The translations under genes were made by a program, and so were the position numbers. From a virus, in IMG/VR virus record IMGVR_UViG_3300045988_017492: a stretch of DNA of 5,756 nucleotides, one strand, 5' to 3'. Shown one piece after another: positions 1-5,756 of the stretch (positions are counted from its first letter, which is position 1; each line of letters starts with the position of its first letter). The notes beneath the pieces were generated by a model that made no database searches, had not been told where the DNA came from, and worked only from the letters and a program-made list of their open reading frames with translations.

Positions 1-99
1 ATTTTTTTTGTGACGTATCCTGCAACATATCTGTAAGTTTCCGGTACTGCTTGTGCTATTTGTATTTGACCCATGCCCCATAGGTCTTCTAGCCATTTA
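1..99. repeat. Terminal redundancy, copy 1 (identical to 5658..5756); signature of a circular assembly, not a biological repeat
   Basis: The string attttttttgtgacgtatcctgcaacatatctgtaagtttccggtactgcttgtgctatttgtatttgacccatgccccataggtcttctagccattta was read at both ends with 99/99 identity. Confidence 0.95.
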
Positions 100-662
100 C
101 TTGTGAAGTATCCGTTGTGTTTTACCTTGTATAGGTGTTCTAGGTCTGTTGGTCTCCATCCATATAGAATCATATGGTAATGCGGTCTTGCTGTCTGTTC
201 TCCATACTCTCCTGCCACAAAATAGCGTAATTTGCCCCTGTAAGCCTTTCTGAGGCGTTTTAAGAATTTTTGAATGTCAGTATACAGTAACGTTTGTACG
301 CTCTCTGGCCGCTTCTCTCCCGGTTTCCAGACGTATTGTACTTTTCGCATGATTTCGCCTGTATTTACAATCATTCCTGGTACATGGTCATCGTCATATG
401 TTAGTGTGATGAACCACACTTCTTCTTTCGGATAGTCTCGTGCTTCTAATTCTATTCGTGTTGTCCAGTCCTCTCTTTGTCTTATTCTGCATCCGATGCA
501 CTGTCCGCATGGTATTAACATGACATCTTTTCTGTACATCAAATCTTCATATTTGAGCTGTTTTCCCGATATTTCAGAAAAGCGGGCAAGTGAATACACC
601 CGCCCGCTTATGTCTTTGTTTTCCGGGTTGTACAGCCGTATTAACGGTTTGTAACAACTCAT
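1..662 (-). CDS. VP4: Replication initiation protein VP4 (HUH rolling-circle endonuclease), N-terminal 220 codons; the gene continues across the circular junction into 5756..5300
   Basis: The ORF is absent from the track because it runs off the window edge. Hand translation from ATG 662..660 gives MSCYKPLIRLYNPENKDISGRVYSLARFSEISGKQLKYEDLMYRKDVMLIPCGQCIGCRIRQREDWTTRIELEARDYPKEEVWFITLTYDDDHVPG...LRYFVAGEYGEQTARPHYHMILYGWRPTDLEHLYKVKHNGYFTSKWLEDLWGMGQIQIAQAVPETYRYVAGYVTKK. An in-frame TAA lies at 668..666. Visible motifs are CGQCIGCR, RCR motif I FITLTY (413..396), HUH motif HYH (182..174), and the two-tyrosine motif YVAGYVTK (29..6), which parallels YVAKYVNK of phiX174 protein A. The start overlaps the VP2 stop as ATGA (662..659). 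A GGTGA SD-like element sits 8 nt upstream. Confidence 0.9.
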   Translation of the reverse strand, partial: MSCYKPLIRLYNPENKDISGRVYSLARFSEISGKQLKYEDLMYRKDVMLIPCGQCIGCRIRQREDWTTRIELEARDYPKEEVWFITLTYDDDHVPGMIVNTGEIMRKVQYVWKPGEKRPESVQTLLYTDIQKFLKRLRKAYRGKLRYFVAGEYGEQTARPHYHMILYGWRPTDLEHLYKVKHNGYFTSKWLEDLWGMGQIQIAQAVPETYRYVAGYVTKK

Positions 663-3971: not shown

Positions 3972-4196
3972 TTACGATGCTGTGCCATTGCTGTACTCCC
4001 TTCTGATTAGTTCCATTTCGATTGCGTTTGCAAAACTTTTCATCCGCCATATTTCGTCAAGCATTTTTTTTGCGTCTTCGACGTTGGATATTTTGCGAAG
4101 CATTTTGTATTCGCCATCGATTTCTTTGTATTTTCGAGTTAGCAGCTTCTCAAGCACTTCTTTGGTCTGGTCTCTTACGTTCCATGTTTTGTGCAT
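3972..4196 (-). CDS. Hypothetical protein, 74 aa, predicted all-helical and charged; no family recognised
   Basis: ATG 4196..4194 is preceded by AAGGAG with a 9-nt spacer. That SD is embedded in the last codons of the upstream 40-aa ORF. The ORF fills the gap in the same-strand array exactly. Confidence 0.6.
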   Translation of the reverse strand: MHKTWNVRDQTKEVLEKLLTRKYKEIDGEYKMLRKISNVEDAKKMLDEIWRMKSFANAIEMELIRREYSNGTAS

Positions 4197-4202
4197 TACG
4201 GT

Positions 4203-4325
4203 TTACTCCTTTTCTTTTTCGTTGATGCTGTCATGCAGTGCATGATAGATTTCGTCAAGCTTTTCCAAAATCTGCATCATGAGACGGATTGCCTGCTTGA
4301 CGTCCTTGATGGAAATAAGTGCCAT
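4203..4325 (-). CDS. Hypothetical protein, 40 aa (MALISIKDVKQAIRLMMQILEKLDEIYHALHDSINEKEKE); amphipathic helix, no family recognised
   Basis: The track's 66-aa version starts at a TTG (4403) inside the peptidase gene. The internal ATG 4325..4323 lies 1 nt after the peptidase TAA (4329..4327) and is preceded by AAGGGGG with a 6-nt spacer, so it is the more plausible start. Confidence 0.5.
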   Translation of the reverse strand: MALISIKDVKQAIRLMMQILEKLDEIYHALHDSINEKEKE

Positions 4326-4326
4326 G

Positions 4327-4719
4327 TTACACCCCCTTTCTGTATTTGTTGGGTCGTGTATCAACGTGCACCCAACTTGCGTAGACGATGATGCCGCAGC
4401 CAAATGGAATGATTTTGTTTAGTTTGTTGGCGATTTCCTTTGCGGTCATGCCTTCAATCCGGATGTCTGCTGCCATTCCTCGCATGTGATATGAGTACTT
4501 AGCACCGCCTACTTTTTTATTCCTTGCCGGTGTTCTGTATCCGCTGGTTATGTATACCGGCTTTCCGACTTGGTTTCTGAGAATATCCAAAATAGATACC
4601 AGATAGTCATCCACAAAAACTACCTGTGAACCATCCTGGCACGCAAATTCCCGCACTTTGAAGTGCTGCCCTATTTTTTCGTTTGCGTCTGTGTCCATGA
4701 TATAGCATTTGATTGCCAT
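4327..4719 (-). CDS. Zinc D,D-/L,D-peptidase of the M15 (LAS) superfamily, Peptidase_M15_3/YcbK-like; putative peptidoglycan hydrolase (endolysin), 130 aa
   Basis: The sequence contains ...FKVREFACQDGS...ITSGYRTPARNKKVGGAKYSYHMRGMAADI...WVHVD. It shows the SGYR-x-x-x-x-N-x-x-VGG block, an H-x6-D zinc-ligand pair (SYHMRGMAAD) and the distal VHVD histidine typical of M15A-type peptidases. The track start at 4728 is a GTG inside the SD. ATG 4719..4717 is preceded by GAGAGGTGA with a 5-nt spacer. No N-terminal signal peptide or TM segment is visible. Confidence 0.8.
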   Translation of the reverse strand: MAIKCYIMDTDANEKIGQHFKVREFACQDGSQVVFVDDYLVSILDILRNQVGKPVYITSGYRTPARNKKVGGAKYSYHMRGMAADIRIEGMTAKEIANKLNKIIPFGCGIIVYASWVHVDTRPNKYRKGV

Positions 4720-4743
4720 GGCGTTCACCTCTCTTCATTTTGG

Positions 4744-4772
4744 ATTTTACCATTTTTCTTGTCGCTTGTCAA
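4744..4772 (-). promoter_or_regulatory. Strong sigma-70/sigma-A-type promoter driving the whole gene array
   Basis: The minus strand reads ccaaaaaacaa-TTGACA-agcgacaagaaaaatgg-TAAAAT. The -35 element is a perfect TTGACA (4772..4767) and the spacer is exactly 17 nt. The -10 is TAAAAT (4749..4744) with an extended -10 TG (TGgTAAAAT). An A-rich UP-like tract lies upstream. The predicted TSS is near 4737, about 18 nt before the peptidase ATG. Confidence 0.7.
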
Positions 4773-4863
4773 TTGTTTTTTGGTTTGAATGGCGCTTTAG
4801 CGCCTTGCCGTGTGGAGCGCAGCGGAACTCGGCTTAATCCATTCATTTTTAGCGCTGTGCGCG

Positions 4864-5038
4864 TTTTCAACACTTTCAACATTTTCAACAGGTTTTCAAC
4901 ATAAAGTTGCACAATGATTTTCGTCATTTTGACGGACTTTCAACAATTCAACATTTTTTCCACAATTCTTTCAACAGTGTTTTTCGCTTGTTTTTAACGT
5001 TTTATCGTTATAAATTTATACTTTTCAACTTTTCCACA
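4864..5038. repeat. Array of ten same-orientation 9-mers, consensus yTTTCAACA (plus strand) = TGTTGAAAr (minus strand); iteron-like / DnaA-box-like
   Basis: Plus-strand copies are: 4864 TTTTCAACA, 4873 CTTTCAACA, 4882 TTTTCAACA, 4893 TTTTCAACA, 4937 CTTTCAACA, 4945 AATTCAACA, 4956 TTTTCCACA, 4968 CTTTCAACA, 5022 TTTTCAACT, 5030 TTTTCCACA. The first four are contiguous at 9/9/11-nt phasing. The two TTTTCCACA copies satisfy the relaxed DnaA-box consensus TTWTNCACA. Confidence 0.85.
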
Positions 5039-5072
5039 TACTCTACTACTACGTCTACAACAAGTTAATATA

Positions 5073-5119
5073 ATATACGCGCGCATGCGTGCGCGCTACG
5101 CGCGCGCGTGCGTGCGTAC
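5073..5119. repeat. 47-nt alternating purine-pyrimidine tract (CG/TG/CA-rich), Z-DNA-prone and hairpin-prone
   Basis: The tract atatacgcgcgcatgcgtgcgcgc|tacgcgcgcgcgtgcgtgcgtac alternates perfectly over 5073..5096 and 5097..5119, with one phase slip at 5096/5097. It contains a 7-bp hairpin (gcgcgca 5079..5085 with tgcgcgc 5090..5096), the 12-nt palindrome acgcgcgcgcgt (5098..5109), and an alternative 9-bp stem 5097..5105 with 5110..5118. Confidence 0.85.
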
Positions 5120-5124
5120 CGGCA

Positions 5125-5142
5125 GCCCCCTTGCTAGGGGGC
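5125..5142. other. Hairpin A1: GCCCCC-ttgcta-GGGGGC
   Basis: A 6-bp all-G:C stem (5125..5130 with 5137..5142) and a 6-nt loop. Confidence 0.75.
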
Positions 5143-5150
5143 GCTGACGG

Positions 5151-5183
5151 AAGGGGGTAGGCCGATAGGCCTACCCCCTTTTT
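5151..5183. other. Hairpin A2: 13-bp perfect stem AAGGGGGTAGGCC-gata-GGCCTACCCCCTT followed by T-run on the plus strand
   Basis: 5151..5163 pairs perfectly with 5168..5180 around the tetraloop gata. TTTTT at 5179..5183 follows on the plus strand only. Confidence 0.8.
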
Positions 5184-5226
5184 CGCTGATAACTGATTTA
5201 CATGGAGCTTTGAAGTCTATTTTCAT

Positions 5227-5243
5227 CCCCCCTTCTAGGGGGG
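5227..5243. other. Hairpin B1: CCCCCC-ttcta-GGGGGG (paralogue of A1)
   Basis: A 6-bp all-G:C stem (5227..5232 with 5238..5243). The loop ttcta compares with ttgcta in A1. Confidence 0.75.
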
Positions 5244-5256
5244 ATAATAGAGGGGT

Positions 5257-5289
5257 TAGCCCAGTGCTTACTTGATAGGTACTGGGCTA
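5257..5289. other. Hairpin B2: TAGCCCAGT ... ACTGGGCTA, 9-bp perfect stem extendable inward; starts 11 nt downstream of the Rep stop codon on the minus strand
   Basis: 5257..5265 pairs with 5281..5289. An inner extension (5267:5279, 5269:5277, 5270:5276) adds pairs, with two G:T pairs on the plus strand that become C:A mismatches on the minus strand. The lead-in GGGGTTAGCCC parallels GGGGGTAGGCC of A2. Confidence 0.75.
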
Positions 5290-5299
5290 GGTGACACCG

Positions 5300-5756
5300 T
5301 TAGAGCGTCCCCTTCTTCTTCGTTTGCTTTTTGATGACTCTTTCTTTTGTTTCGCATTGCTCTGCAAAGTCTGTGTTTTCATACTTTAGCCGGTTTTCTG
5401 CTATGGCTGCTGCCTGTCTGTTTTGTTTAATTCTCCACAATCTTTGTGGGTTTTCGGCTTCCATCATTTTTTCATAATAACGTGGAATTTGTGCGTGTTT
5501 TCCGTTTGTGCATTGGATGTATCCTTGTCTCCAGATTTCTGCTTTGTGTTCTTGATAATAGTTGTCTCCTAGTCCCGGTTTTAGGCTCATGCATGCGAAT
5601 GGTTTTTGTTGACCTAACTCGTAGTATTGGTTTGCTTTCTTTCCGTCTATTTCGTACATTTTTTTTGTGACGTATCCTGCAACATATCTGTAAGTTTCCG
5701 GTACTGCTTGTGCTATTTGTATTTGACCCATGCCCCATAGGTCTTCTAGCCATTTA
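5300..5756 (-). CDS. VP4: Replication initiation protein VP4, C-terminal part (stop TAA-equivalent codon at 5302..5300); same gene as 1..662 joined across the circle, 339 aa total
   Basis: The track ORF 5300..5731 begins at an internal Met (residue 197 of the full protein). The frame stays open to the window end and is in phase with 662..1 (5300-5657 = -357, divisible by 3). It contains YRYVAGYVTKK (5686..5661). Confidence 0.9.
   Translation of the reverse strand, partial: KWLEDLWGMGQIQIAQAVPETYRYVAGYVTKKMYEIDGKKANQYYELGQQKPFACMSLKPGLGDNYYQEHKAEIWRQGYIQCTNGKHAQIPRYYEKMMEAENPQRLWRIKQNRQAAAIAENRLKYENTDFAEQCETKERVIKKQTKKKGTL
5658..5756. repeat. Terminal redundancy, copy 2 (identical to 1..99)
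   Basis: See copy 1. Confidence 0.95.

Follow-up and report, generated by a model that had tools for sequence, protein, structure and literature searches.

The 5,756-nt stretch of viral DNA analysed here (IMG/VR record IMGVR_UViG_3300045988_017492, hereafter called the window) is a complete gokushovirus genome, and the M15 peptidase encoded on its minus strand at 4327-4719 is probably an accessory endolysin, captured from the lysis cassette of a Clostridia tailed phage without its holin.

Genome organization

Positions 1-99 and 5658-5756 of the window constitute an identical terminal repeat of 99 nt (assembly overlap), indicating a circular genome of 5,657 nt. All recognisable genes are located on the minus strand, and VP1, VP2, VP3, VP4, VP5 and VP8 are found together on that one strand of a circle within the ~4.5-6 kb range of the Gokushovirinae. 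The structural and Rep genes are recognised by Pfam (Phage_F with E 5e-135, Chlamy_scaf and Phage_ORF5) and by PHROGs (pilot, Rep and VP8-like). The closest GenBank records to the window are gut gokushoviruses, and few phages of the mammalian gut are as abundant as gokushoviruses. The features are the following.

4744..4772, minus strand: predicted sigma-70-type promoter, TTGACA, 17 nt, TG-n-TAAAAT (extended -10)
4725..4733, minus strand: Shine-Dalgarno sequence GAGAGGTGA, read directly from the sequence
4327..4719, minus strand: M15 peptidase CDS, 130 aa plus stop, pI 9.5, single catalytic domain
4203..4325, minus strand: o40, 40 aa, acidic amphipathic helix, backbone gene
3972..4196, minus strand: o74, 74 aa, soluble helical hairpin, backbone gene
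3988-3866, minus strand: VP8-like basic protein (PHROG)
3852-3607, minus strand: VP5 (Phage_ORF5)
3677-3216, minus strand: VP3 scaffold (Chlamy_scaf)
3219-1543, minus strand: VP1 capsid protein (Phage_F)
1504-659, minus strand: VP2 pilot protein (PHROG)
662..1, then 5657..5300 of the circle, minus strand: VP4/Rep, 339 aa, spanning the window junction

A terminator-like hairpin, AGCCCGGAGAAATCCGGGCT followed by ATTTTT, is located in the intergenic region that separates VP1 from VP2, at 1513-1532 on the minus strand.

The peptidase and its active site

The first-pass annotation had named the product of 4327-4719 an M15/LAS-type zinc peptidase on account of the motifs SGYR, VGG, SYHMRGMAAD and VHVD, all of which are present in the translation, and the profile searches that it had proposed bear this out. 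Peptidase_M15_3 (PF08291) matches over profile positions 2-108 of 108 with E 4.5e-23 and a score of 81.9 bits (cut-off 23.2), Peptidase_M15_2 matches with 37.9 bits against a cut-off of 27, and there is a match to PHROG 894, "endolysin", with E 1e-44. In an alignment with 25 representatives showing 39-60% identity (26 sequences), residues R62, H78, D85, H118 and D120 are invariant, and in 1LBU the positions aligned with H78 and D85 are 154 and 161, both zinc ligands of that enzyme. Judged from the alignment, the H-x6-D...H zinc site, the catalytic Asp and the substrate Arg are intact, and the zinc triad, H78, D85 and H118, is conserved throughout. AlphaFold2 run on the alignment of relatives gives a model with pLDDT 97.4 and pTM 0.90, in which the whole chain is one compact domain and no wall-binding domain is present. 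Its Foldseek neighbours are 1LBU (E 9.5e-5), hedgehog N-domains, VanXYc, ChiX, Ply500, LysB4 and the T5 endolysin (EndoT5), and peptidases of tailed phages match it at a TM-score of 0.93-0.96. Since sequence, residues and fold concur, membership of the M15/LAS family, MEROPS M15 in clan MD, is established.

The pN/pS of the peptidase is 0.19 at a pS of 0.56 among 57 relatives, indicating purifying selection. A HMMER search gave 15,272 clusters at 50% identity with E 1e-3 or better. Orthology to MepK (NF053624, an L,D-endopeptidase equivalog) was rejected, the score being 53.3 bits against a cut-off of 185, and only the domain is related.

Start codon, promoter and upstream region

In the mechanical ORF list the gene is given as 4327..4728 on the minus strand, with 133 aa from a GTG at 4728. 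This GTG falls within the Shine-Dalgarno sequence GAGAGGTGA (4733-4725), which is separated from ATG 4719 by 5 nt, and the N-termini of the homologues read MIKCYIM or MAIKCYIM. By this context the true start is ATG 4719, the one used by the homologues and given in the first-pass annotation. Variants of AAGAGAGGTGA are among the commonest 16-mers 5' of the start codon in the relatives (8 of 81 loci). The gene takes up 393 of the 5,657 nt, or 6.9% of the genome when the 99-nt duplication is removed, in agreement with the earlier estimate of 7%.

The promoter, TTGACA-17-TGgTAAAAT at 4772-4744 on the minus strand, has 11 of 12 matches and is the sole near-consensus promoter in the window; the remaining sites have 9 of 12 each, which is the chance level. 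The end of its -10 hexamer is located 24 nt from the start codon of the peptidase, which is the predicted first cistron behind it, and the earlier description of the peptidase as the first gene after the only strong promoter is thus correct for the window. Strict matches at an equal distance (22-25 nt) occur in no more than about a quarter of the related genomes (~22 of 81), so this position cannot be generalised.

The region between the peptidase start codon and the Rep stop (4720-5299) contains no real genes. Two ORFs were considered and rejected, 4769-4927 (52 aa) with a pN/pS of 1.0 and 4994-5086 (30 aa) with a pN/pS of 0.77, both at low pS, indicating that it is the DNA itself that is conserved and that the region is non-coding. 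Six exact copies of TGTTGAAA are found at 4865-4976 on the minus strand, with 0.30 expected, and shuffled sequences never gave six. Degenerate copies are also present, the repeat cluster is located 100-230 nt upstream of the promoter, and the DNA around the repeats is conserved as DNA and not as protein (pN/pS ~1 at pS 0.11). The cluster is iteron-like, and the repeats could be candidate binding sites for Rep or for a host factor. Just past the Rep stop there are GC-rich hairpins or palindromes at 5078-5093, 5151-5180, 5225-5245 and 5257-5289, one of them with a perfect 13-bp stem, AAGGGGGTAGGCC / GGCCTACCCCCTT; these are candidates for an origin, for structures priming the complementary strand, or for a terminator. 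No RNA family of Rfam matched credibly.

Distribution and origin of the gene

More than 1,300 clusters at 90% identity match the peptidase, and the best 120 of these show at least 79% identity, many of them on contigs of ~5.6 kb. An identical protein is already public (P0001 and L001). Among the IMG/VR relatives nearest by VP1, every complete genome has the peptidase, and it is absent only from three truncated contigs; the gene is fixed in this gokushovirus clade. Gokushoviruses that lack it (MG945157, KT264798, MG945391 and MT135258) show ~45% identity in VP1 and have genomes of 5.26-5.48 kb, ~0.3-0.4 kb shorter. They keep o40, an o74-like gene and VP8, and in the slot after the non-coding region they have other small, non-hydrophobic ORFs. 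As these sisters retain the backbone and carry other ORFs at that place, the peptidase is regarded as an insertion in a variable accessory slot. Seven genomes with 70-73% identity in VP1 (L107, L108, L112, L122, L125, L130 and L135) also have a peptidase at this precise place, and its C-terminus likewise reads ...YRKGV, yet its identity to the enzyme of the window is just 43-49%; this suggests either recombinational replacement of the allele or very fast divergence.

The nearest homologues outside the microviruses are the 137-aa endolysins of the Faecalibacterium phages FP_Toutatis and Lelie, with 46-47% identity. In bacterial genomes a scan with the peptidase alignment found homologues, with 34-47% identity, only in Clostridia, in Oscillibacter and Faecalibacterium MAGs and in one MAG labelled as an archaeon; none of the contigs found was microviral, and a VP1 scan of 185,579 species genomes gave no relative. 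In a viral-tagging study of F. prausnitzii microviruses are mentioned once, as background, and do not figure among the findings. The affinity to endolysins of Faecalibacterium and Oscillospirales phages adds to the indirect case for monoderm Clostridia as hosts of some gokushoviruses.

Two longer contigs were considered as integration sites and rejected, both being chimeric assemblies. L137 (8,781 nt) has a microvirus joined to portal, head-morphogenesis and terminase genes of a tailed phage at 6286-8675, and L133 (10,711 nt) consists of two different microviruses joined together.

Search for a route across the membrane

Transmembrane (TM) segments were sought by Kyte-Doolittle hydropathy with a 19-residue window (KD19) in stop-to-stop frames, in all three coding-strand frames of the circular genome. 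No coding-strand frame in the window reaches a KD19 of 1.6. The highest value, 1.31, belongs to the beta-strand catalytic core of the peptidase itself, which carries H118, and the N-terminus of VP2 has 1.01. The positive controls gave 2.79 for phiX174 E and 1.61 for lambda S; as the method recovers lambda S and E as well as the holin-like proteins of the Faecalibacterium phages, it detects holins where they are present, with lambda S as a borderline case. The first-pass annotation had seen no holin-like TM protein on the coding strand and no signal peptide, and both observations are upheld. By hydropathy there is no TM holin encoded with the endolysin as in a canonical holin-endolysin cassette, and no overprinted TM lysis protein of the phiX174 E type in the three coding-strand frames.

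The peptidase shows no signal h-region within its 35 N-terminal residues, where KD(11) is 0.6 as against 2.4-2.7 in the secreted family members P0185 and P0232, and has no feature of a Sec- or SAR-exported endolysin. In the AlphaFold model one beta strand of the folded domain is made up of residues 3-7, and in the longer database versions of the N-terminus the extra residues are hydrophilic only.

The same scan was applied to the relatives, 80 IMG/VR genomes with a peptidase 70-100% identical, giving 81 genomes in all. No recurring hydrophobic frame adjoins the peptidase in these 81 genomes, and 58 of them are without any coding-strand frame with a KD19 of at least 1.5. In the other 23 the matches are scattered and belong to other genes or to the flank of a chimeric contig, namely to VP2 N-termini, to an alternate frame close to where VP3 meets VP1, whose counterpart in the window is not hydrophobic, and to the chimeric flank. 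The genomes with the 43-49% identical allele likewise have no hydrophobic frame beside the peptidase. Taken over the window and ~125 related genomes, the hydropathy scan found no signal peptide, no SAR domain and no recurrent TM-bearing ORF on the coding strand.

The small neighbouring genes

The ATG of o40 is located 1 nt past the peptidase stop in the window (TAAcATG) and 1-2 nt past it in most relatives, a spacing that suggests translational coupling between the two genes. It is found in all 80 of the peptidase-bearing loci with a median identity of 92% and a pN/pS of 0.17, and is the best conserved of the small proteins. Its hydrophobic moment is 0.70, its net charge -2.3 and its mean hydrophobicity ~0. 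Nearly all GenBank records leave o40 unannotated. As o40 also occurs in sister gokushoviruses without peptidase (L081-L084), it was rejected as a partner specific to the enzyme.

The o74 gene is present in 68 of the 80 loci with a pN/pS of 0.29, and its only matches are microviral orthologues. With a KD19 of 0.19 it is not membrane-spanning, and AlphaFold from the single sequence (pLDDT 89.5) predicts a soluble hairpin of two helices, residues 7-33 and 39-69. A weakly similar gene is found in the peptidase-less lineage (L081, 1617-1844), there upstream of o40 and not downstream, indicating that the gene order has apparently been swapped. Since the peptidase-less gokushoviruses have both, o40 and o74 should be considered backbone genes that were not acquired together with the enzyme.

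Role of the peptidase

In the reading that we favour, the donor would have been a tailed phage infecting Clostridia (Oscillospirales, for example Faecalibacterium), from whose lysis cassette an ancestor of the clade would have taken the gene but not the holin. The gene would have been inserted in the variable accessory slot, which is flanked by the conserved, promoter-bearing non-coding region on one side and by o40, o74 and VP8 on the other. The peptidase would be made as the first cistron of the main transcript and, as a presumably active enzyme, might accumulate in folded form in the cytoplasm of a Clostridia host, cutting the peptide stems or cross-links of the wall only after damage to the cytoplasmic membrane. 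In lambda-type systems lysis by an endolysin requires a membrane lesion, and the model therefore depends on a further membrane-breaching factor. The breach probably comes from a backbone function or from the host, because the peptidase-less sisters share the small genes, have no TM protein and must lyse all the same. A lysis mechanism of the gokushovirus backbone, also used by these sisters, would thus open the membrane, and the enzyme would speed or complete wall breakdown and progeny release. We know of no gokushovirus lysis gene that has been identified. Since the clade keeps a tailed-phage endolysin without a holin, the membrane must be opened by another component of the 5.7-kb genome or by the host, and the genome, with some ten genes, offers few candidates.

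The enzyme might instead serve in entry, which we consider unlikely but keep as a rival, because tailed phages have M15A domains in virion-associated tail and baseplate proteins of large size, 650-1,200 aa, and because the microviral peptidoglycan hydrolase Gp7 of phage Ebor was detected in virions in trace amounts by LC-MS/MS (PMC11980548). Placed on or in the virion or released together with it, the peptidase would open the thick monoderm wall locally for the T=1 particle or for the VP2 pilot tube; with a Clostridia host a tail-less virus would face such a wall, and an enzyme acting from the outside needs no export route. However, the proteins most closely related to it are stand-alone endolysins of equal length, encoded in cassettes beside TM proteins, and the single compact domain (pLDDT 97) is predicted to have no N- or C-terminal extension for docking to the capsid. 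The gene is also located outside the VP5-VP3-VP1-VP2 structural module, and sister gokushoviruses enter cells without it. A non-lytic role, either remodelling of the wall (superinfection exclusion or chronic release) or that of a nearly neutral passenger, would fit with the missing holin and with a gene that is accessory and missing in the sister lineage, but it is very improbable: the strong purifying selection and the presence in every complete genome of the clade, despite a cost of 7% of a size-limited genome, speak against a passenger, and wall remodelling by a cytoplasmic enzyme needs export just as lysis does.

Two further alternatives place the missing function in the virus itself. A complete lysis pair of a non-canonical kind, in which a viral membrane-active factor without a classical TM helix (o40 or the Gly-rich hydrophobic N-terminus of VP2) lets the peptidase pass, is in our view rather improbable. 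In its favour are the close spacing and strong purifying selection of o40, whose hydrophobic moment exceeds that of magainin and melittin in the same computation, and the VP2 N-termini of some relatives, with a KD19 of 1.6-1.73. Yet o40 is acidic with hardly any mean hydrophobicity, soluble coiled coils typically have amphipathic heptad helices as well, o40 was not acquired together with the enzyme, and the VP2 N-terminus falls well below those values in the window. Should the clade nevertheless lyse by an endolysin that crosses the membrane without a TM holin, helped by o40, o74 or newly made VP2 inserting from the inside, which we doubt, this would constitute a holin-independent lysis strategy of ssDNA phages and identify the long-missing lysis function of the gokushoviruses. 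A conventional holin or E-like protein hidden in an overprinted frame or on the complementary strand is highly unlikely. The complementary strand is rich in hydrophobic ORFs, with KD19 values up to 2.6; a 48-aa hydrophobic ORF at 5331-5474 on the plus strand, antisense to the Rep C-terminus, is open even at ~45% Rep identity, and a complementary-strand ORF has been noted beside one microviral peptidase (PMC3394797). However, the plus strand is T-rich (AT skew -0.25 to -0.48) and thus gives hydrophobic, stop-poor frames from composition alone. Most of the antisense ORFs are open in less than 35% of the relatives and no plus-strand promoter is above chance, and they were rejected as holins; the ORF at 5331-5474 likely stays open as the complement of a purine-rich stretch coding for Lys, Glu and Gln. 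Among the overprinted frames, 3011-2832 on the minus strand, within VP1, opens with an 11-residue hydrophobic stretch but has a KD19 of 0.82 and is open in 32% of the relatives, and 2596-2486, also within VP1, and 4753-4610, overprinted on the peptidase gene, are too weakly hydrophobic and poorly retained in the relatives; all three were rejected. The absence of a recurrent hydrophobic frame next to the peptidase in the 81 genomes, most of which have no strongly hydrophobic coding-strand frame at all, points the same way.

Comparison with known systems

The captured accessory endolysin that we favour has counterparts at several levels. The fold and the H-x6-D...H site are shared with the Streptomyces albus G zinc D-Ala-D-Ala carboxypeptidase (1LBU, M15A), Ply500, the T5 endolysin, ChiX and VanXY, whereas identity to 1LBU and the LAS enzymes is at most 24% and 1LBU has an extra N-terminal wall-binding domain. 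PhiX174 E, a TM protein, acts by inhibiting MraY and is not itself muralytic. As with E and other amurins, a small ssDNA phage must here lyse its host without a holin-endolysin-spanin cassette, but the window has what is by family a muralytic enzyme, and no TM protein. The endolysins of FP_Toutatis (AUV56799) and Lelie (XAI97673) are similar single domains of ~135 aa without signal peptide; their genes are directly followed by those of two TM holin-like proteins (KD19 2.59 and 1.91), whereas in the microvirus the enzyme stands alone.

The first-pass annotation, sound as to the identity of the enzyme, its zinc site, its position behind the promoter and the lack of an export signal or TM partner, had presented such peptidases as rarely noted in Microviridae and knew of no experimental work on them; this part has to be given up. 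Cultured roseophage microviruses and the 4.2-kb vB_RpoMi-Mini carry M15 peptidases (PMC11499846, PMC9865509), and Rhizobium microviruses carry an endolysin gene. Gp7 of Ebor (Tainavirinae) is active in zymograms (mBio 2025, PMC11980548) and is, like the peptidase of the window, an accessory wall hydrolase of a microvirus (~146 aa) that is absent from smaller relatives. It is probably of a different enzyme family, as 6SSC, the best HHpred match of Gp7, is absent from the 50 structural neighbours listed for our model. Ebor also differs in having an alphaproteobacterium as host and in encoding a 45-aa predicted membrane protein, Gp1, which has no counterpart in the window genome.

The closest parallel is found within the gokushoviruses themselves. 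Roux et al. 2012 (PLoS One, PMC3394797) described M15_3 peptidases in 11 Microviridae associated with humans. Five of the 11 were gokushoviruses, and four of these five group with Faecalibacterium and Anaerofustis. The bacterial homologues adjoin holins, several horizontal acquisitions were inferred, and a role as endolysin was proposed, in contrast to phiX174 E (PMC3394797). GenBank records in the clade are annotated as "peptidase M15" or "similar to peptidase". With this analysis, the annotation and the identical public protein, the presence of an M15 peptidase in gokushoviruses must be regarded as already known, and the question of how the enzyme crosses the membrane, and whether it acts in lysis or at entry, is generic to the class and not peculiar to the window. 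The genomes of Roux et al., the GenBank "Human gut gokushovirus" records KX513868, KX513876 and KX513877, and the MG945xxx Microviridae from pig faeces carry a peptidase of the same protein family and belong to the same gokushovirus clade as the window; the gokushovirus records listed have peptidases with 61-87% amino acid identity to that of the window, and the three KX5138xx records 62-87%. Compared with the gokushovirus clade of Roux et al. the window shows no essential difference: its affinity to Faecalibacterium and Clostridia and the endolysin role proposed for its peptidase are shared. It is of value as a clean and typical case, and for the comparative finding that places o40 and o74 in the backbone.
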